This document shows, piece by piece, positions 24,404 to 48,538 of a stretch of 48,538 nucleotides of DNA. This DNA is from a virus. Lineage: Duplodnaviria; Heunggongvirae; Uroviricota; Caudoviricetes. The translations under genes were made by a program, and so were the position numbers. The notes beneath the pieces were generated by a model that saw only the letters and a program-made list of their open reading frames with translations, did no database searches and was not told the origin of the DNA. Position 1 is the stretch's first letter. Every line of letters begins with the position of its first letter. The DNA is taken from IMG/VR virus record IMGVR_UViG_2740892445_000002. One strand, written 5' to 3'.

Positions 24404-24946
24404 ATGAACAGATACTCTAAACTTCAAATTCAATTACATTGGCTGACTCTCGTATTAATAGCTATAGCCTGTGCTGCAATGGAACTTCGAGGTTTGTTTC
24501 CTAAAGGGTCTTCCTCCTATTTGCTTATGAGAGAAACACATTACAATGCTGGTATATTTATTCTTCTACTGATGATAATAAGAGTAATTATCAATAATAA
24601 ATATATAACACCAGCTATTACGCCGCCCCCACCTGCATGGCAAATGATATCAGCCAAATTCATGCAAACCCTGTTATACATATCTTTTTTGGTGTTACCA
24701 GTATCAGGACTTGCAATCATGGTTTTTGGAGGTAAAGCATGGAGCCTTCTGGGGATTGATATTCCCACTTTCGCTAACACCGACGGAGAAGTAAAATCCG
24801 TAGCCAAAACTATTCATGAATCACTTGCAAATATTGGTTATTTATTAATCACACTCCATGCTGGCGCTGCATTAATTCATCATTATATTCAGAAGGACAA
24901 TACACTTGTCAGAATGCTCCCTGAGCACCAGCATGATAAAAAGTGA
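24404..24946 (+). CDS. cytochrome b561 family protein (moron in bor position)
   Basis: 180 aa, four predicted transmembrane helices, conserved His positions typical of the CybB/b561 family. Confidence 0.8.
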   Translation: MNRYSKLQIQLHWLTLVLIAIACAAMELRGLFPKGSSSYLLMRETHYNAGIFILLLMIIRVIINNKYITPAITPPPPAWQMISAKFMQTLLYISFLVLPVSGLAIMVFGGKAWSLLGIDIPTFANTDGEVKSVAKTIHESLANIGYLLITLHAGAALIHHYIQKDNTLVRMLPEHQHDKK

Positions 24947-27707: not shown

Positions 27708-29642
27708 TTACGCGTTATTCACTTCCACCACAATGCTGTCAATCAGCACCGGGTATGTTGCACCATTAGTGATATCGGTCACACGCAACTTGTCTGCCGT
27801 AAAAATTCCGACAGTGGACTGCGACAGCATGAACGGCGTCCCGTCCTTACCATCAATGACCGGCGTCACCTCAATACTGTTGTTACCGGCGAAACGGAAG
27901 CCCAACGTATGCCATTCGTTATTAAATGCACCGAATGACCCCAGTTTCATGTTTTGCGCCGTATCGCCCTTGTGGTACATCACGTTAAGGTCTGTCGCAT
28001 CGCTCTGAACGTAAAAAGATGCCAGCAGGTTATGACCAGCATTACCTTCCAGGGTAACCCCTTGTGGCAGGGCAGAAACCGGCCAGTACAGCGCCAGTGC
28101 GTACTGATTAGCCGTAAGCGCGCCATCAAGTTTAAAACGACAACTGACAAGGCCGCCTTTGCCCAGCAGGTCGGCACCATTACCGGCATCATGTTCCAGG
28201 TACCAGGAGGATTTTCCCGTCGCTTTGGTAAGCTTCATCGCCTTACCTCCACTGGCTCCGGCATCATCCACAACAGCGGCACTACCTCCGCCAGCCCCCC
28301 AGCCCTGTGGAGTCAGTTGTCCTTCCGAATCGCTGGCCCTGTATGCAAACAGTGTTGTCATCCCGGTAGTTTCACCCGGTGATGTTGATGGAGTGTCAGG
28401 TGATGGCTTCTCATCCGGTGGTGTCACGGCCTGCCCGCCCAGCAGTTCAGCCGTGCGCCCTGCATGGAGCAGAATAGAGGAGGCCAGACGGTCAGAAATG
28501 ATGCCCCTGCGTGCCCATGAACTGAAATGGCTGTCACGCTGTGTCGAGACAAAACTGCCCTGGGTACGGGATGCCGCACCGTAATACCCGACAGCCACAA
28601 TATCCGGATCTTCCGTCGGAGCATTCGTTGGCGTGTTCTGTCCATTCTCATCCGTCAGGAACGGTACAAAGAAAATATTCTGAGTTTCCTTGCCTTTGTA
28701 GCCACCGTATACCGCCTCATATTTATCGGTGCCAGCGTTTTTCCAGTAATATGTCGTATCACCACAAATCCACGGCACCGTGCCAGCATTTCCACTCACA
28801 CACTGCACAGCAAGCGGAGACAGGTCAGTTCTGAACTGCTGAACCATGGTCGTGAATAAACCATTATGCTGCTGACTTCCCGATGCAAGGTCTGCTTCTC
28901 CCTGCATCCAGACCACTGCCAGAAGTTTGTTTTTCGGGTTCTTCGCCAGCGCCGCTCTGGTACGGCTTACCAGGTCCTGATACAGAGGTTTACCGACTCC
29001 CCAGCGTGAAGAATCAGCGGAAGCACCGCTGGCCTCACTGAATGAACCGTCCGGCCCGGTGGTGAATGCTGACCCGCCACGGCAACAGGGCACCAGAAGT
29101 ATCCCGGCATTCTGCGGGATATAAGGCAGCAGTTTTTTGGCAATATGCAGCCCCTGACTCACACAACCATACTGCCCCTTGTTCAGGTCAGCTTTTGGGT
29201 GGTTTATCCCGCTCATGTCCTGCACATCATGCAGGCAGTGGTCTGCCGGAATGATGTCATTGTATTTACACGGCGTACCACCTGGCGTGACCGTGCTGCG
29301 GCGTGCCAGTTGCTTAATCCGTGGATCCGGGCGGTCAAATGAATCCGGTAACGGAAGCCCTTCACCATAGGCCATGCCATTTGACTGCCCCGCCAGAACA
29401 ACAACAAAGTAATATTCTGGCTCACTGACTGTGCTCATTACCGTACCGCTGTCACCCGACGGCTTCACCACAACAGGCGTGGTGACATCACCCTCCGCTG
29501 CAATCGCCTGCATCAGGGTATAAGGCGTAATAGCAACCGGACTGCCAAACGGCTGCCAGCCTTCCTTCAGTTTTTGTGACAGTCGCTCCGCAAGCTCTGA
29601 CGGTGAAGCCGCCCTGACCACACCATAATGCTTAAATGTCAT
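27708..29642 (-). CDS. nanS-p: prophage sialate O-acetylesterase (NanS-p-like, SGNH hydrolase)
   Basis: Start set at Met35 behind GGGAGGAG Shine-Dalgarno; protein resembles the NanS-p esterases found downstream of stx in Stx phages. Confidence 0.8.
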   Translation of the reverse strand: MTFKHYGVVRAASPSELAERLSQKLKEGWQPFGSPVAITPYTLMQAIAAEGDVTTPVVVKPSGDSGTVMSTVSEPEYYFVVVLAGQSNGMAYGEGLPLPDSFDRPDPRIKQLARRSTVTPGGTPCKYNDIIPADHCLHDVQDMSGINHPKADLNKGQYGCVSQGLHIAKKLLPYIPQNAGILLVPCCRGGSAFTTGPDGSFSEASGASADSSRWGVGKPLYQDLVSRTRAALAKNPKNKLLAVVWMQGEADLASGSQQHNGLFTTMVQQFRTDLSPLAVQCVSGNAGTVPWICGDTTYYWKNAGTDKYEAVYGGYKGKETQNIFFVPFLTDENGQNTPTNAPTEDPDIVAVGYYGAASRTQGSFVSTQRDSHFSSWARRGIISDRLASSILLHAGRTAELLGGQAVTPPDEKPSPDTPSTSPGETTGMTTLFAYRASDSEGQLTPQGWGAGGGSAAVVDDAGASGGKAMKLTKATGKSSWYLEHDAGNGADLLGKGGLVSCRFKLDGALTANQYALALYWPVSALPQGVTLEGNAGHNLLASFYVQSDATDLNVMYHKGDTAQNMKLGSFGAFNNEWHTLGFRFAGNNSIEVTPVIDGKDGTPFMLSQSTVGIFTADKLRVTDITNGATYPVLIDSIVVEVNNA

Positions 29643-29814
29643 TGCTCCTCCCGGACGGGATAATGTGTTAACTAAGATGAGAGAGCAGGTGACAGCCCCG
29701 GCCGCATGAAAGTTCTGAGAGGGAAGTGCTGCCTGCTGCTCCATTGCACAGATTAATTACTGTCTGGTAGTATTCAGTGGCTGATTAGAATACTTCACAT
29801 TTTGTTATTTTGTG

Positions 29815-31582: not shown

Positions 31583-31660
31583 TGCTGGACCGTCACCGGG
31601 GACTCGAACCCCGCATTTTCAACATAAAAAGGTTGATGCTCTTTCCTGATGAGCTAGTGA
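31583..31660 (-). tRNA. tRNA-like gene with 8-nt anticodon loop CUUUUUAU (Lys-UUU-like; possible variant or pseudogene)
   Basis: Acceptor stem CCGTCAC/GTGACGG, D arm GCTC-ATCAGGAAA-GAGC, T arm CGGGG-TTCGAGT-CCCCG, encoded CCA; anticodon loop one nt too long. Confidence 0.55.
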
Positions 31661-31662
31661 CG

Positions 31663-31737
31663 GCATGGTTGCCTTGCTGGATTTGAACCAGCGACCTGGC
31701 GATTATGAGTCTCTCGCTCTCACCACTGAGCTAAAGG
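31663..31737 (-). tRNA. tRNA-like gene with CAU anticodon (Met/Ile2-like), imperfect acceptor and anticodon stems; possible pseudogene
   Basis: D arm GCTC-AGTGGTGA-GAGC, anticodon loop CTCATAA, T arm GCTGG-TTCAAAT-CCAGC, CCA; only 4 of 7 acceptor pairs form by my reading. Confidence 0.45.
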
Positions 31738-31780
31738 GCCGGGAACAGAATAATAATGGTGCGTAATTAATTCTGCAATC

Positions 31781-40656: not shown

Positions 40657-41052
40657 ATGGATTTTGCAACTATCACAAGTAGCGTTGTGTTGAGTGCGTG
40701 TGTTGCTGGCGTGGTTTCGCTGGTTAATGGTGCCTGGCAACGCAAATCGGAACGAACCATTGAAGCGCAACGCCGGGCTGCTGAAGCCAGAGCAAAAATA
40801 AGAGAAATGGCTCTCACCCTCGCATTGAAAGAATGGGAGCTCCACCAAACCATATCGAAGGCAAAGGGGTATGGTGTCAGCGGCCCAGAAGTTTACGTCT
40901 TTCGATACTTTCGTATGCTCAACCTGATGGAGGAAGACAAATTCACGATTGAAAATCTCAGACTGATCCAGTACGACTCCATGTGTGCTGTTGCAGCAAT
41001 TCAGGCAGAGATCGAGCGATATCGGGAGAAAAACGGCCTCCCGATGCCATAA
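40657..41052 (+). CDS. membrane-anchored hypothetical protein (opposite strand to early operon)
   Basis: 131 aa, N-terminal TM helix (FATITSSVVLSACVAGVVSLV) then helical domain; strong Shine-Dalgarno. Confidence 0.55.
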   Translation: MDFATITSSVVLSACVAGVVSLVNGAWQRKSERTIEAQRRAAEARAKIREMALTLALKEWELHQTISKAKGYGVSGPEVYVFRYFRMLNLMEEDKFTIENLRLIQYDSMCAVAAIQAEIERYREKNGLPMP

Positions 41053-42144: not shown

Positions 42145-42621
42145 ATGCTTAGTGGTAAAGACTTAGGCCGAGCGATAGAGCAGGCCATTAACAAAAAAAT
42201 TGCATCAGGATCCGTCAAATCAAAGGCGGAGGTAGCGCGTCACTTCAAAGTCCAACCACCATCAATCTATGATTGGATTAAGAAAGGTTCGATAAGTAAA
42301 GATAAACTTCCAGAGCTATGGCGTTTCTTTTCTGATGTGGTTGGCCCAGAGCATTGGGGGCTTAACGAATACCCCATACCAACCTCCCTCATTTCAGATA
42401 CAAAAAGTGAACTTTTAGACATAAACAGCCTTTATCAAGCCGCCTCTGATGAAAAAAGAGCCATTGTGGCTTTTCTCTTATCAGAAAATGCCACGGAACC
42501 TAGTTGGGTTGATCATGACGTTCGCGCCTACATTTCCACAATGGAGATGAAGGTAGGTAAGTATTTGAAAGATCAAGAATCAGAACGGAAAAGCCAGAAC
42601 ATCACCAAAACGGGAACTTAA
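42145..42621 (+). CDS. CI-like prophage repressor (RacR/DicA-like HTH, no peptidase domain evident)
   Basis: 158 aa with N-terminal HTH-like region; divergent arrangement with Cro-like gene. Confidence 0.7.
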   Translation: MLSGKDLGRAIEQAINKKIASGSVKSKAEVARHFKVQPPSIYDWIKKGSISKDKLPELWRFFSDVVGPEHWGLNEYPIPTSLISDTKSELLDINSLYQAASDEKRAIVAFLLSENATEPSWVDHDVRAYISTMEMKVGKYLKDQESERKSQNITKTGT

Positions 42622-42714: not shown

Positions 42715-42760
42715 ACATTAGGCGCAGCCTATTGACAATTAATTAGGCATTACCTATAGT
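42715..42760 (+). promoter_or_regulatory. pL-like promoter TTGACA-17-TATAGT overlapped by operator half-sites
   Basis: Near-consensus sigma70 hexamers; TTAGGCG-like half-sites at about 42717-42734. Confidence 0.6.
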
Positions 42761-43626: not shown

Positions 43627-43962
43627 TTTATCCTCCATTGAGGTTACTGGTTGAGAATGGAGACCTCTCGTGACAGCGTGTGGTCGTGCGCCGGACACGG
43701 ATAAGAATCCGACACTGACAGTTTACTGAAAGGATATATCCCTGAAAAGTCAGGGCATAACACGAAAGCGCACGGCGAGATTCCTTTGCATATAAGGCTT
43801 GTCGTTAAATTTCTTCAACCGCGCGTTTCCGGTTGTGGCAATCCGCGAAATAGCGCGGCGGTAAGTATGGCGGGGCTATTCCTTCCCCCGTTGAGGACAC
43901 CGGGTTGTCAGGTTGACCATACGCTTAAGTGACACCCCAGCCACAACAACCTCTGTTATCAC

Positions 43963-44002
43963 TTTTCTGGTGATTCGGCGGAAATGGATATCCGCTCTTT
44001 TT
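43963..44002 (+). ncRNA. dicF: DicF-like small RNA
   Basis: UUUCUGGUGA 5' seed then GGCGGA-AAUGGAUA-UCCGC hairpin and U-run; downstream TTTTTAAAGTGAATTTTGTGATG..GGTGAATGCGGC matches the dicF-dicB spacer as I recall it. Confidence 0.65.
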
Positions 44003-44179
44003 AAAGTGAATTTTGTGATGCGGTGAATGCGGCCATGCGCACGCAGAACAGTTAAAACAAGCGGTCTTTTACTCGCGTAACAGACATCAACTAACAATCC
44101 GGCGTTAATTGTTAACTGGTTAACGTCACCTGGAGGCACCAGGCACGGCATCACAAAATTCATTGTTGAGGACGCGATA

Positions 44180-44368
44180 ATGGAAACGTTATTACCAAAC
44201 GTTAATACGTCTGAAGGTTGTTTTGATATTGGTGTTCTGCTCAGTAATAAAGCGTTTACTGAGGATGCCATTAATATGCGGAAATATGAGCCTTATCTGC
44301 TCAATGATAATTCCATTCTTTCCCGAATTGCCCTTATTAAACTTGGTATTTTCGGAGAACGTCAATGA
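44180..44368 (+). CDS. dicB: cell division inhibitor DicB
   Basis: 62 aa, METLLPNVNTSEGCFDIGVLLSNKAFTEDAIN... like Qin DicB. Confidence 0.85.
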   Translation: METLLPNVNTSEGCFDIGVLLSNKAFTEDAINMRKYEPYLLNDNSILSRIALIKLGIFGERQ

Positions 44369-44553
44369 CTTCAGCATTTGCACTGGTGATGACGGTTTTT
44401 CTTATAACGGGTGAATCACAGAATGTGATTACCGGAATTTATGCCAGTAAAGAATCCTGCCTCCAGGCAAGAGACGAGCAAAAAATTTCTGGTGAATGCC
44501 TCCCGGTAAAAAAAGTATCGCTGTACCTGAATAACGAAACACCGGCTGGATAA
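44365..44553 (+). CDS. YdfD-like small membrane protein
   Basis: 62 aa, N-terminal hydrophobic segment; ATGA-coupled to dicB as ydfD is in Qin. Confidence 0.55.
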   Translation: MTSAFALVMTVFLITGESQNVITGIYASKESCLQARDEQKISGECLPVKKVSLYLNNETPAG

Positions 44554-44648: not shown

Positions 44649-47120
44649 ATGAGTAAAATCTTTATTTGCGCGGCTATTCCTGATGAACAGGCCATAAAAG
44701 AAGATAGCGCTGTTGCGGTGGCCACTGCCATTGAAGCCGGTGATGAGCGTCGCGCACGCGCAAAATTTCACTGGCAATTTCTGGAGCAATTCCCGGCAGC
44801 TCAGGACTGCGCTTATAAATTTATTGTCTGTGAGGATAAACCCGGCATACCCCGCCCTGCCCTCGATTCCTGGGATACCGAATATATGCAGGAAAACCGC
44901 TGGGATGAGGCGTCTGCTTCCTTTGTCCCGGTCGAGACTGAATCCGATCCGATGAACGTCACCTTTGACAAGCTGGCCCCTGAAGTACAGAACGCCGTCA
45001 TGGTTAAGTTCGACACATGTGAAAACATCACTGTTGATATGGTGATTAGCGCACAGGAATTGTTGCAGGAAGACATGGCAACATTCGACGGCCATATCGT
45101 TGAAGCGTTGATGAAAATGCCAGAAGTTAACGCCATGTATCCGGAGCTTAAGCTGCATGCCATCGGGTGGGTTAAGCATAAATGCAAGCCTGCTGCTAAA
45201 TGGCCCGAAATTCAGGCAGAGATGCGCATCTGGAAAAAACGTCGCGAAGGTGAACGCAAGGAAACCGGGAAATACACATCTGTCGTTGATATCGCCCGTT
45301 CCAGAGTAAACCAACAGAACACTGAAAACTCTGCTGAAAAAACCGGGGCTGTCACTGTTGCCGTTCGCCGAGAATACAAACAGACATGGAAAACACTCGA
45401 CAATGAGCTGGCCTGCGCCCTCTGGCCCGGTGATGTGAATGCGGGAAATATTGACGGTACCATCCATCGCTGGGCGACAAATGAGGTTATCGACAAGGAT
45501 CGCGAAGACTGGAAGCGTATCTCAGCATCAATGCGCAAACAGCCCGAAGCACTTGGCTATGACCGTCAGACTATTTTTGGCCTTGTCCGTGAACGTCCGA
45601 TCGACATTCACAAAGATCCCGTTGCACTGAACAAATATATCAGCGAATACCTGACAACAAAGGGCGTGTTTGAGCATGAAGAAACAGACCAGAGCTCTGC
45701 TGATGCTCTCCAGCCGTCAGCAGCACAAACTGCTCCAGTGGAGACGGCAGAATCCGATACTCAAAAAAATGAAATCCTGGTGGAAGCTGAACCATCTGTA
45801 GAGCGTGAAGGACCATTTTATTTCGTCTTTACCGATAAGGGCGAGGAAAAATACGGCAGGGCAAACAAACTTTCTGGTCTGGACAAGGCGCTGGCTGCCG
45901 GCGCTACCGAAATCTCAAAAGAGGAATATTTTGCCCGAAAAAATGGCACATATACGGGCTTACCGCAAAATGTAGATACCGCTGAAGATTCCGTACAACC
46001 AGAGCCGGTAAAAGTTACCGCTGACGAAGTAAACAAAATTATGCAGGCAGCCAATATCAGCCAGCCTGACGCCGATAAATTGCTTGCTGCATCACGTGGT
46101 GAATTTGTTGAAGGGATTAGCGACCCTAATGATCCGAAATGGGTGAAAGGGATCCAGAGTCGCAACGCTGAGGACCAGAATCAGCCCGGCGTGAAACAAA
46201 ATGAGCCAGAAGCGGAACAAAACAGCCCGGATACGCAACAAAACGGGTCAGAAGAGCAACAACCAGAACCAGCAGTGCAACAGGAAGTGGAGAAAGTTTG
46301 CACCGCATGCGGTCAGACCGGTGGCGGCAACTGTCCTGACTGTGGTGCGGTGATGGGCGACGCAACCTACCAGGAAACATTCGATGGAGAGAGCCTGGTT
46401 GAAGTTCAGGAAAATGCTCCGGAGGAAATGGAAGGCACTGAAGATCCGCACAAGGAGAACACTGACAGCGATCAGTATCACGCCAGCGATAATAAAACTG
46501 GCGAGACAGCAAATCCCTTAATTAAGGTGAACGGTCATCGTGAAATCACATCCACCAGCAGGTTGTGGCACCATCTGATGATTGACCTTGAAACAATGGG
46601 AAAAAATCCTGATGCGCCAATAAACGCTATAGCCGGTAAGTTTTTTGATCCGGCAACCGGAGAGATGGGGCCAGAATTCAGCAAAACTATCGATCTGGAA
46701 ACCGCAGGCGGGGTCATCGAACGGGACACCATTAAGTGGTGGCTGAAACAGTCACGCGAAGCACAATCCGCCATTCTGACCGATGAAATCCCGTTGGATG
46801 ATGCACTGCTGCAATTCCGGGAATTTATCGACGAAAACTCCGGTGAATTTTTTGTTCAGGTCTGGGGTAACGGTGCAACTTTCGACAACGTGATTTTACG
46901 CCGTTCATATGAACGGCAGGGGATCCCCTGCCCGTGGCGTTACACCAATGATCGCGATGTAAGAACGATGGTTGCTCTGGGACTGGTGATGGATTTCGAC
47001 GCAAGAACGACTATTCCATTCGAAGGTGAACACCATAACGCCCTGCACGATACGCGTTACCAGGCAAAATACGTTTCAGCCATCTGGCAAAAACTGATCC
47101 CGAGTCAGGCTGATTTTTAA
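44649..47120 (+). CDS. large protein with C-terminal DEDDh 3'-5' exonuclease domain
   Basis: 823 aa; C-terminal motifs IDLETMG (Exo I), GNGATFDNVIL (Exo II), HNALHDTRYQAKY (Exo III); central CxxC...CxxC. Confidence 0.75.
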   Translation: MSKIFICAAIPDEQAIKEDSAVAVATAIEAGDERRARAKFHWQFLEQFPAAQDCAYKFIVCEDKPGIPRPALDSWDTEYMQENRWDEASASFVPVETESDPMNVTFDKLAPEVQNAVMVKFDTCENITVDMVISAQELLQEDMATFDGHIVEALMKMPEVNAMYPELKLHAIGWVKHKCKPAAKWPEIQAEMRIWKKRREGERKETGKYTSVVDIARSRVNQQNTENSAEKTGAVTVAVRREYKQTWKTLDNELACALWPGDVNAGNIDGTIHRWATNEVIDKDREDWKRISASMRKQPEALGYDRQTIFGLVRERPIDIHKDPVALNKYISEYLTTKGVFEHEETDQSSADALQPSAAQTAPVETAESDTQKNEILVEAEPSVEREGPFYFVFTDKGEEKYGRANKLSGLDKALAAGATEISKEEYFARKNGTYTGLPQNVDTAEDSVQPEPVKVTADEVNKIMQAANISQPDADKLLAASRGEFVEGISDPNDPKWVKGIQSRNAEDQNQPGVKQNEPEAEQNSPDTQQNGSEEQQPEPAVQQEVEKVCTACGQTGGGNCPDCGAVMGDATYQETFDGESLVEVQENAPEEMEGTEDPHKENTDSDQYHASDNKTGETANPLIKVNGHREITSTSRLWHHLMIDLETMGKNPDAPINAIAGKFFDPATGEMGPEFSKTIDLETAGGVIERDTIKWWLKQSREAQSAILTDEIPLDDALLQFREFIDENSGEFFVQVWGNGATFDNVILRRSYERQGIPCPWRYTNDRDVRTMVALGLVMDFDARTTIPFEGEHHNALHDTRYQAKYVSAIWQKLIPSQADF

Positions 47121-47172: not shown

Positions 47173-47451
47173 GTGATGGCCATGAGCGAACAGTACCTGA
47201 TAACGCTCGACGAGTGGAAACCTAAACGGTTCAGTCTCCCAATAACAAACACTACCCTGGTGAAATACGGAAAAATGGGATACATCGTTCCAAGGCCACA
47301 AAAAATCCGTGGGCGTTGGCTGATAGATCGCCGAGCAGTATTTGTGGGTCCTGGTGAAACAGGAATTGCGCCGGAAATTCATACTGACGATGATGACGCA
47401 CTGAAGGAGATTTTAACTCATGTCACCGAGGCCACGAAAAAACAGCACTGA
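47173..47451 (+). CDS. xis: excisionase-like protein
   Basis: 92 aa basic protein immediately upstream of and overlapping integrase. Confidence 0.55.
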   Translation: MMAMSEQYLITLDEWKPKRFSLPITNTTLVKYGKMGYIVPRPQKIRGRWLIDRRAVFVGPGETGIAPEIHTDDDDALKEILTHVTEATKKQH

Positions 47452-48538
47452 CATAGCATGTCTTTACGAAAAGTTTGATCGCAGAACTGGCAAGGTTTAC
47501 TACCAGTATAAAAATCCAGTGACTGGAAAATTTCACGGACTCGGAACAGACAAAGGCAAGGCAGAAAAAATCGCTTCCACGGCTAATCAACGAATAGCTG
47601 CAGCAGAAGCGGAATATTTCATGCGCAAAATTGATGAAAGTCCATCAGCAACAAAACGTCGGGGTATCAGATTAAAAGCATGGGTTGATCGATATCTGAA
47701 AATACAGGACTCACGACTGAAAAATGGAGATATTGCAGCTACAACCCACAAAGAAAAGGCGCGAATGGCTGCATACCTGGTTTCCCGCCTGGGAAATCAC
47801 CCATTGATAGACCTGGAAGTAAGAGACTTTGCATTAATACTGGATGAATGGCTGGATAAAGACATGGTCAGCACAGCGAGAGTAAATCGCGGATTATGGG
47901 TTGATATTTATAAAGAAGCACAACATGCAGGGGAAGTTCCTCCTGGATGGAATCCTCCGGAGGCTACCCGTAAACCGATCCCTAAAGTAACCAGAGCCAG
48001 GCTCGCCCTAGAAGACTGGCAAAAAATTTACAACGCAACGCCGGAAAAACACTTTATCCGTAACGCAATGCTTCTTGCGATTGTCACTGGTCAGCGCCGT
48101 GATGACATTTGCCACATGCGTTTTTCAGATGTGTGGAACGAACACTTGCATATCACCCAGGGAAAAACCGGAATGCGTCTGGCGTTACCGCTTACACTAC
48201 GCTGTGATGCCATTGGGATAACGTTAAAAGACGTTATTGATGGATGCCGAGACAGAATATTAAGTCCATATCTAATCCATAGTCGGCACCAGAAACAACC
48301 AAAGCCGATGAGTAAAGACAACCTGAGCGACTACTTTGCCAAAGCGCGGGATCTGGCTGGAATAATTCCACCAGCAGGAAAAACACCGCCCACATTTCAT
48401 GAACAACGCTCTCTATCTGAACGGCTGTACCGTGCACAGGGTATCGATACAAAAACCTTACTAGGACATAAAGTCCAGGCAACCACCGATCGCTATAACG
48501 ATACCCGAGGTCAGGAATGGGTTAAGTTGGTTATTTGA
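47420..48538 (+). CDS. int: tyrosine site-specific integrase
   Basis: 372 aa; C-terminal ...HEQRSLSERLY...LLGHK....TDRY... with catalytic-type R, H-x-x-R and Y positions. Confidence 0.9.
   Translation: MSPRPRKNSTDIACLYEKFDRRTGKVYYQYKNPVTGKFHGLGTDKGKAEKIASTANQRIAAAEAEYFMRKIDESPSATKRRGIRLKAWVDRYLKIQDSRLKNGDIAATTHKEKARMAAYLVSRLGNHPLIDLEVRDFALILDEWLDKDMVSTARVNRGLWVDIYKEAQHAGEVPPGWNPPEATRKPIPKVTRARLALEDWQKIYNATPEKHFIRNAMLLAIVTGQRRDDICHMRFSDVWNEHLHITQGKTGMRLALPLTLRCDAIGITLKDVIDGCRDRILSPYLIHSRHQKQPKPMSKDNLSDYFAKARDLAGIIPPAGKTPPTFHEQRSLSERLYRAQGIDTKTLLGHKVQATTDRYNDTRGQEWVKLVI

Follow-up and report, generated by a model that had tools for sequence, protein, structure and literature searches.

Introduction

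In an analysis of 325 lambdoid phages (Zheng, Casjens, Davidson, Amundsen & Smith, Genome Res 2025; PMC12315714), phages that lack a RecBCD inhibitor were found to be Chi-rich and were proposed to use the host RecBCD, and phage Tritos is the prototype of a type that has a nuclease and no gene for a single-strand annealing protein (SAP), a single-stranded-DNA-binding protein (SSB) or an anti-RecBCD factor, with at least four top-strand Chi sites in all four of its members. DnaQ-like nucleases were reported in lambdoid Rec modules in the same work, together with 'RecE-2' proteins, in which the nuclease domain is missing and whose roles are not known (PMC12315714). The present work concerns a gene of this kind in the IMG/VR virus record IMGVR_UViG_2740892445_000002 (Caudoviricetes), a Rac/Qin-like lambdoid prophage at potC; the whole stretch of 48,538 nucleotides that was analysed is referred to here as the window, and the gene, at 44649-47120 on the plus strand, as the exonuclease gene. 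Since the Tritos type has already been published (PMC12315714), the gene belongs to a catalogued module type, of which it is a typical and very widespread copy. The fusion of a RecE-type scaffold to a DEDDh exonuclease is, however, not described in the main text of that study, which assigns it no mechanism (PMC12315714); what is added here is a domain map of the protein, the swapping of modules on the RecE/YdfE scaffold, and a probable Rad52-like annealase among its relatives.

Several described nucleases resemble the window protein in family or in position. T4 DexA, a phage 3'-5' DNA exonuclease that takes part in recombination-dependent intron homing (PMC12153337), shares with it the DEDDh family and all catalytic residues, but is a standalone enzyme of 227 amino acids (aa) from a lytic phage whose DNA is modified, and W152 of DexA is not conserved in the window protein. 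Its Escherichia coli homologue EcD (HREX) was described by Kang et al. as an anti-T4 nuclease specific for 5-hydroxymethylcytosine (5hmC) DNA (PMC12153337); it is of the common domain family, but only part of its defence determinants is present in the window protein, which is encoded by a fused gene within a repressed lytic operon. Judging from its residue numbers, EcD is apparently a standalone protein of some 185 aa, and it probably belongs to the group of standalone DEDDh proteins considered below. The host enzymes ExoI and ExoX belong to the superfamily of the window exonuclease, have the polarity predicted for it and are housekeeping enzymes without a RecE-type scaffold; together with ExoVII and SbcCD they trim 3' tails and recreate blunt ends, which lets RecBCD reload (PMC5592934). 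In the Qin prophage of K-12, the equal operon position is held by ydfE, an IS2-cut pseudogene from which the nuclease and all downstream parts have been lost.

Architecture of the exonuclease protein

The open reading frame (ORF) starts with ATG at 44649, its stop codon ends at 47120, and it encodes 823 aa, over which PHROG 2082 extends from end to end; an identical 823-aa protein was found in NCBI assemblies. We regard it as highly probable, from sequence homology, that this protein combines a RecE-type scaffold with a DEDDh exonuclease. Its parts are listed below, with the predicted local distance difference test score (pLDDT) of the structure model and the ratio of nonsynonymous to synonymous substitution rates (dN/dS) where these contribute.

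44649-47120, plus strand: complete exonuclease gene, a RecE-type scaffold fused to a DEDDh exonuclease (ORF, PHROG 2082)
46569-47087, plus strand: DEDDh (DnaQ-like) 3'-5' exonuclease domain of the Rv2179c/T4 DexA family (Pfam PF16473, PDB 8kel, motifs)
44649-45263, plus strand: N-terminal domains A (aa 1-100, alpha/beta) and B (aa 105-205, helical), roughly the YdfE_N region
45381-45668, plus strand: helical module C (aa 245-340), probably YdfE_C (BLASTP, alignment, pLDDT 83-90, dN/dS about 0.1)
45810-45944, plus strand: small domain D (aa 388-432), two beta-hairpins and helices with the motif GPFYF..GRANKL (pLDDT 76-86)
46035-46523, plus strand: central region (aa 463-625), acidic and partly of low complexity, close to RecE aa ~443-591 (BLASTP)
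46299-46343, plus strand: putative zinc ribbon CxxC-x7-CxxC (CTACGQTGGGNCPDC), also present in RecE and predicted to bind metal

The C-terminal part is assigned most firmly. Pfam PF16473 (Rv2179c-like 3'-5' exoribonuclease domain) matches aa 641-813 over all of its profile positions (1-177 of 177) with an E value of 7e-61 and 205.4 bits against a gathering cutoff of 27, in agreement with the DnaQ-like C-terminal domain that had been noticed from the sequence alone in an earlier note on this DNA. The three Exo motifs named there are likewise in place: Exo I is DLET at 645-648 (D645, E647), Exo II is NGATFD at 741-746 (D746), and Exo III is HNALHD at 796-801 (H796, D801). The sole solved relative found by sequence is T4 DexA (PDB 8kel), a remote match with an E value of 9e-6, in which D645, D746, H796 and D801 pair with D7, D119, H186 and D191, the DexA residues being those listed in PMC12153337; E647 pairs with DexA residue 9 in the alignment, and the Exo I glutamate is printed as E12 in that source. 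By its residues, the DEDDh exonuclease formed by the C-terminal 180 aa, a member of the Rv2179c/T4 DexA family, is catalytically complete; 3'-5' activity is predicted for it, and dN/dS over the domain is 0.11.

The remaining N-terminal 640 aa constitute a RecE-type non-catalytic scaffold composed of domains A and B, a helical module of 85 aa, the beta-hairpin domain and an acidic region with four cysteines (Cys4). An AlphaFold2 model, limited to aa 1-450 and built from a 46-sequence alignment, reached a mean pLDDT of 76 and gave the order alpha/beta domain (1-100), helical domain (105-205), disordered linker, helical domain (245-340), disordered linker and beta-hairpin domain (388-432), the columns of the last being almost invariant in the same alignment. 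Structure prediction, which the earlier note had proposed for the N-terminal part, thus resolved the domains, but no match for the fold of the N-terminal scaffold domains was obtained among solved structures. The region can nevertheless no longer be called unassigned, as it was then: precomputed matches to the newer Pfam families YdfE_N (PF27430) and YdfE_C (PF27432) exist for the exact protein and for relatives, and aa 273-625 align to RecE. The central pair of CxxC motifs was also read correctly, as CTAC at aa 551-554 and CPDC at aa 562-565, and is present in RecE.

Relation to RecE

In BLASTP comparison with K-12 RecE, aa 273-625 align to RecE 288-591 with an E value of 1e-57 and about 80% identity over aa 463-625, and aa 255-340 together with aa 463-625 are homologous to the non-catalytic region of RecE. 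Module C is common to all RecE-like proteins, corresponding by BLASTP and alignment to residues 288-351 of K-12 RecE and 445-525 of HK225 RecE. The nuclease domain of RecE (aa 564-866, of the PD-(D/E)XK type) is not matched, as the BLASTP alignment ends at RecE residue 591 and PF12684 gives no hit; the NCBIfam equivalog model for RecE (PRK09709/NF007259) scores 245.7 bits, below its cutoff of 1269, and covers only aa 453-625 and a second stretch. The window protein thus resembles RecE of Rac and the RecE proteins of Gifsy-1 and HK225 in genomic position, in the module at aa 255-340 and in the central region including the Cys4 motif, but it carries a 3'-5' DEDDh domain in place of the PD-(D/E)XK 5'-3' nuclease of RecE, its first 250 aa are of the YdfE type, unlike the Exonuc_VIII (PF06630) type of RecE, and recT, which adjoins recE in HK225 and K-12, is absent downstream of its gene.

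The earlier note had reasoned that a match of the N-terminal region to a known recombination or replication domain would make this an ordinary module. Homology to the non-catalytic part of RecE was indeed found and therefore places the gene in the RecE lineage, but it leaves the gene itself unexplained.

Within the central region (46035-46523; dN/dS 0.38), the stretch DKLLAASRGEFV(E/D)GISDPNDPKWVKGIQ and the Cys4 segment are almost identical to K-12 RecE despite diverged flanks. This stretch could be a conserved partner-binding peptide or could reflect recent recombination between prophages.

Module swapping on the scaffold

An exhaustive HMMER search returned 10,327 relatives in many architectures, which were dissected by piecewise BLASTP and Pfam. 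Among them, the 805-aa protein P0124 has aa 1-290 of K-12 RecE (100% identity) and the RecE middle (91% identity) fused to a DEDDh domain that is 86% identical to that of the window protein, which is direct evidence for a recent swap of the nuclease domain. Many relatives combine a Gifsy/HK225-type N-terminus with the DEDDh domain, and the reverse arrangement, a YdfE-type N-terminus followed by a RecE-type PD-(D/E)XK nuclease, is found in P0139 and P0156.

A large group of proteins from Enterobacter, Klebsiella and Kosakonia, annotated 'exodeoxyribonuclease VIII', consists of YdfE_N and YdfE_C with no nuclease domain. For their C-terminal module a fold search gave Rad52-like matches, amid helical-repeat noise from the long terminal helices of the model; PDB sequence searches were empty, and Pfam gave a sub-threshold Rad52 match only. 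The gene for the Rad52-like scaffold protein is at the equivalent locus position, and a Sipho_Gp157 gene comes after it. On the strength of the modelled fold, these proteins annotated as exonuclease VIII probably contain a Rad52-like annealase. Yet another C-terminal module, PHROG 26058, occupies aa ~437-697 of P0129 (702 aa, Enterobacter roggenkampii), a stretch that gave no Pfam match and resembles neither the nuclease modules nor the Rad52-like one.

One scaffold therefore bears a nuclease of either 5'-3' or 3'-5' type, a probable annealase or, in the case of P0129, a fourth kind of module; no other argument for assigning the scaffold to recombination is as strong as these swaps.

Distribution and selection

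Any match to the gene was found by megablast in 4781 of 5426 complete E. coli genomes, and matches covering at least 80% of it in 3535 of the 5426, with a median of 2 places per genome and up to 9; the product names given by the Prokaryotic Genome Annotation Pipeline (PGAP) are 'exonuclease' or '3'-5' exoribonuclease'. The gene is also carried at 84-87% identity by viable temperate phages (Tritos, HannyBb, PhiR42_1, mEp460 and the PPompW phages), and the 'exonuclease VIII' gene of Tritos shows 87% DNA identity to it over the whole gene. K-12 ydfE in the Qin prophage corresponds to aa 1-255 of the 823-aa protein at 90% identity and is truncated by IS2.

The ORF is intact at 823 aa in several species and in viable phages. 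Set against its counterparts in Tritos, E. albertii and E. ruysiae, the gene shows dN/dS values of 0.07-0.13 in every folded domain and of 0.2-0.8 in the linkers; it is under purifying selection, and it is functional rather than decaying. That it is a prophage relic without current function, as the truncated ydfE of K-12 and the many fragments in databases might suggest, can be dismissed in view of this selection analysis, the intact copies and the complete set of catalytic residues.

Two further ideas about the gene were rejected. The unusual 'PINAIAGKFF' strand after Exo I, a deviation of six residues that might have marked a compensated frameshift, proved to be ordinary allelic variation, and exoD of DLP12 as a remnant of the exonuclease gene was discarded, as tblastn gave no match. 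Literature searches on Rv2179c, ydfE and exoD turned up nothing functional.

Genomic context and the missing annealase

The gene is part of a conserved order that runs from a racR-like repressor gene (42145-42621) through a strong promoter-like site, DUF1391 and small ORFs, a DicF-like region, dicB and a ydfD-like gene to the exonuclease gene, xis and int, and matches both the Qin order dicA-ydfABC-dicF-dicB-ydfD-ydfE and phage Tritos. The flanking features are as follows.

42732-42760, plus strand: promoter-like site TTGACA-17-TATAGT (11/12), 3' of the racR-like repressor gene
44180-44553, plus strand: dicB (44180-44368) and a ydfD-like DUF1482 gene (44365-44553), upstream of the exonuclease gene
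47173-48538, plus strand: excisionase gene (47173-47451) and integrase gene (47420 to the window end), directly 3' of the exonuclease gene, with no annealase gene in between

The promoter-like site is likely the start of the early-left (dicB-type) operon, which probably includes the exonuclease gene. Directly upstream of xis-int in this operon, the gene does hold the place that exo/bet or recE/recT occupy elsewhere, and the operon has no other gene of the recombination type. PHROG scans of the sizeable ORFs between 27.7 and 47.5 kb identified a replication initiator, Ren, an HNH/DUF968 protein, RusA and Q, and in these ORFs no annealase, SSB or Gam. Neither the PGAP annotation of a 99.4% identical prophage nor the neighbourhood of the gene in phage Tritos contains an annealase. 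In HK225, which is of the RecE type, RecT lies directly downstream; in an E. coli prophage that likewise sits at potC and whose DEDDh protein is a variant with a RecE-like N-terminus, xis-int follows straight after.

A cross-species scan was made with the DEDDh alignment and one genome per species, the alignment of module C being too divergent to use, and gave 80 loci, with 24 fused proteins (641-851 aa) and 54 standalone ones (about 185-300 aa). All 24 fused loci, from various Enterobacterales, have the order repO-cII-cro / cI - small ORFs - fused exonuclease - (xis) - int; none of them has an annealase-sized gene between the fused exonuclease and int, and RecT was matched at none of the 78 analysed DEDDh loci. 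The standalone genes (loci L019-L090, about 182-296 aa) are situated in a CPS-53-like early-left module, next to YfdQ-like (DUF2303, PHROG 210), YfdR-like deoxynucleoside monophosphate (dNMP) phosphatase (PHROG 318) and PHROG 204 genes and sometimes an SSB or ParB-like gene. The absence of a RecT/Bet-like annealase that had been remarked upon from the sequence is thus borne out by the PHROG scans, PGAP, Tritos and the fused loci, and the search for an annealing partner, in the window, in Tritos and at the 24 fused loci, came back empty.

Also in this operon, the region 43815-44057 is 82% identical to the K-12 dicF locus, with the body of the small RNA (sRNA) diverged (TTTCTGGTGATTCGGCGGAAATGGATATCCGCTCTTTTT), and includes a terminator-like hairpin at 43977-43996 on the plus strand; DicF was not called at the Rfam gathering threshold.

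Chi sites

The lysis-to-int half of the window is rich in Chi.

25632-48375, both strands: span of all 14 Chi sites (GCTGGTGG) of the window (count against shuffles)

The 14 sites compare with 1.9 +/- 1.4 expected, a number reached by 0 of 100 shuffles, and none lies in the structural genes at 1-23500. Ten are on the minus strand and four on the plus strand; judged by how the terminase and lysis genes are oriented, the minus strand is what is conventionally the top strand of lambda. At the 24 fused loci Chi sites are distributed 78 against 16, in 198 kb.

This pattern fits the Chi-rich class without an anti-RecBCD gene. The window has the features of the Tritos-type nuclease-only Rec module (class B), namely a nuclease gene, no annotated SAP, SSB or anti-RecBCD gene, and Chi sites numbering 10 on the top and 4 on the bottom strand. 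With 87% DNA identity, the shared order cI..dicF-dicB-ydfD-exonuclease-xis-int, the same missing SAP, SSB and anti-RecBCD genes and many top-strand Chi sites, nothing material distinguishes the two, and the window carries a prophage copy of the Tritos module.

Proposed function and alternatives

Because annealase and Gam were not found and many Chi sites are correctly oriented, reliance on the host RecBCD-RecA pathway is probable. A mechanism can be sketched in which, after induction, the gene would be transcribed from the promoter 3' of the repressor gene, and the enzyme would remove nucleotides in the 3' to 5' direction from DNA ends; the scaffold may position it on the target of RecE scaffolds, plausibly linear DNA ends, where trimming of 3' tails or flaps would leave near-blunt ends for the loading or reloading of RecBCD. 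At Chi, RecBCD would then hand over to RecA, and host RecBCD-RecA recombination would yield packageable concatemers, with the exonuclease acting as an accessory to the host pathway and not as half of a phage exonuclease/annealase pair. The explanation as a whole, mechanism included, is offered tentatively and falls somewhat short of what we would call probable; end-trimming for host RecBCD, taken as a mechanism in itself, is a possibility that we hold with slightly more reserve.

Several considerations weigh against this explanation. Which substrate the enzyme would use (DNA or RNA), with what polarity and in what oligomeric state, is extrapolated from DexA and Rv2179c, the second of which is an RNase; the family name used by PGAP is 'exoribonuclease'. 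Lambda-type cos ends carry 5' overhangs, so that, if the cos ends of the window phage are of this type, there would be no 3' tail to trim at the packaging end. Since the scaffold matches no known fold, the idea of targeting depends on its co-occurrence with recombination modules only. A RecBCD inhibitor is missing by PHROG and PGAP annotation, which left small ORFs without annotation, and its absence is to that extent an inference. The Chi bias is not specific to the fusion, as loci with a standalone DEDDh gene show a nearly equal one (121 against 28), so that the link to Chi is one with phage lifestyle. Moreover, the usual effect of the DnaQ-like 3' exonucleases of the host is to inhibit recombination, since they destroy 3' tails (PMC12315714).

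Among the alternatives, the protein might be half of a classical exonuclease/annealase recombinase, whose 5'-tailed products would be handled by an annealase supplied in trans, be it RecT, Beta or Erf from another prophage in the same host, or else by host RecA. The recombination position and the homology to RecE agree with this, partners are often available (the gene is matched at a median of 2 places per genome and at 9 at most, and about half of E. coli genomes carry recE-like DNA), and in Enterobacter the scaffold is directly fused to a Rad52-like domain. RecT, however, reportedly binds RecE's C-terminal nuclease domain, the very part that the window protein does not have; free-living Tritos and 24 of 24 fused loci are without an annealase; and known phage annealases load on 3' tails produced by 5'-3' nucleases (PMC11611040). 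We consider this alternative unlikely.

To much the same degree improbable is a scavenging enzyme that would degrade host DNA or oligonucleotides during lytic growth for the nucleotide pool, with a scaffold unrelated to recombination. To our knowledge, temperate lambdoid phages are generally not degraders of host DNA, the window showed no endonuclease like that by which T4 degrades host DNA, as far as was noticed, and the fused form is always built on a scaffold of the RecE type, for which exchange with recombination modules is seen. These points stand against the proximity of standalone homologues to a YfdR-like dNMP phosphatase gene, which suggests nucleotide metabolism, and the host-DNA scavenging role of T4 DexA, the closest solved relative (PMC12153337).

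The protein could also act on another substrate, as an exoribonuclease on phage or host RNAs or as a destroyer of nucleic acids involved in defence, for instance retron multicopy single-stranded DNA or primers. The Pfam family is named after an exoribonuclease, PGAP uses '3'-5' exoribonuclease', and a DicF-like sRNA is encoded in the operon, but DexA, the nearest characterised phage member, is a DNase, and elsewhere the scaffold is attached to DNA recombination enzymes, which makes such a role quite unlikely.

Anti-phage defence of the HREX type, in which the 5hmC DNA of superinfecting T-even phages would be destroyed, has a precedent in EcD, which cleaved T4 DNA, spared unmodified DNA and protected cells from T4 (PMC12153337), and both the catalytic residues and the equivalent of DexA D169 (an Asp) are conserved in the window protein. 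DexA W152, needed for cleavage of 5hmC DNA, nevertheless aligns to T766 in a remote and moderately reliable alignment, and D90, whose loss to alanine defines the dimer-only defence form, is retained in the aligned D717; by these two positions the window protein departs from HREX. The early-left operon 3' of the repressor gene is, besides, expected to be silent in lysogens, PADLOC gave no match, and EcD, apparently standalone, would not be fused. A defence role is accordingly rated very unlikely.

Other features of the prophage

Several observations concern other parts of the window. On the minus strand, 3' of Q, two adjacent transfer RNA (tRNA) genes at 31586-31741 were read by ARAGORN as a tRNA with the four-base anticodon 'tttt' and tRNA-Met(cat); in a related prophage, the PGAP names of the homologues are tRNA-Arg and tRNA-Ile. 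Two ORFs run opposite to their surroundings on the plus strand, one of 131 aa (40657-41052, PHROG 36733) between the replication gene and ydaT and one of 180 aa (24404-24946, PHROG 31729) between terminase and lysis; both may be morons. Between the lysis genes and the tRNA/Q region, 27708-29744 on the minus strand encodes a 678-aa protein of PHROG 143, in a slot where the related prophage L001 has a 'SASA family carbohydrate esterase' and Shiga-toxin phages have stx.

Significance and outlook

About two in three complete E. coli genomes contain the exonuclease gene at full length, frequently more than once, and viable temperate phages carry it as well. In a wider and more speculative reading, which we put forward as doubtful but conceivable, the RecE/YdfE non-catalytic region may be a general adaptor of lambdoid early-left operons that delivers interchangeable modules for DNA transactions, namely the PD-(D/E)XK 5'-3' nuclease, the DEDDh 3'-5' nuclease, a Rad52-like annealase and at least one more, to one target; in the DEDDh version a phage 3'-5' nuclease would work together with Chi and the RecBCD of the host, where other phages use their own annealase, and the scaffold-Rad52 fusions would represent an unrecognised class of annealase. 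RecE is a recombineering workhorse, and its N-terminal 560 residues boost linear-linear recombination; were the adaptor reading true, the role of these first 560 residues would become approachable by module swapping. If the scaffold is a targeting platform, it would explain how DNA ends are handled in Chi-rich lambdoid phages without Red and Gam, the widespread 'exonuclease VIII' misannotations would be corrected, and new recombineering parts would be gained.

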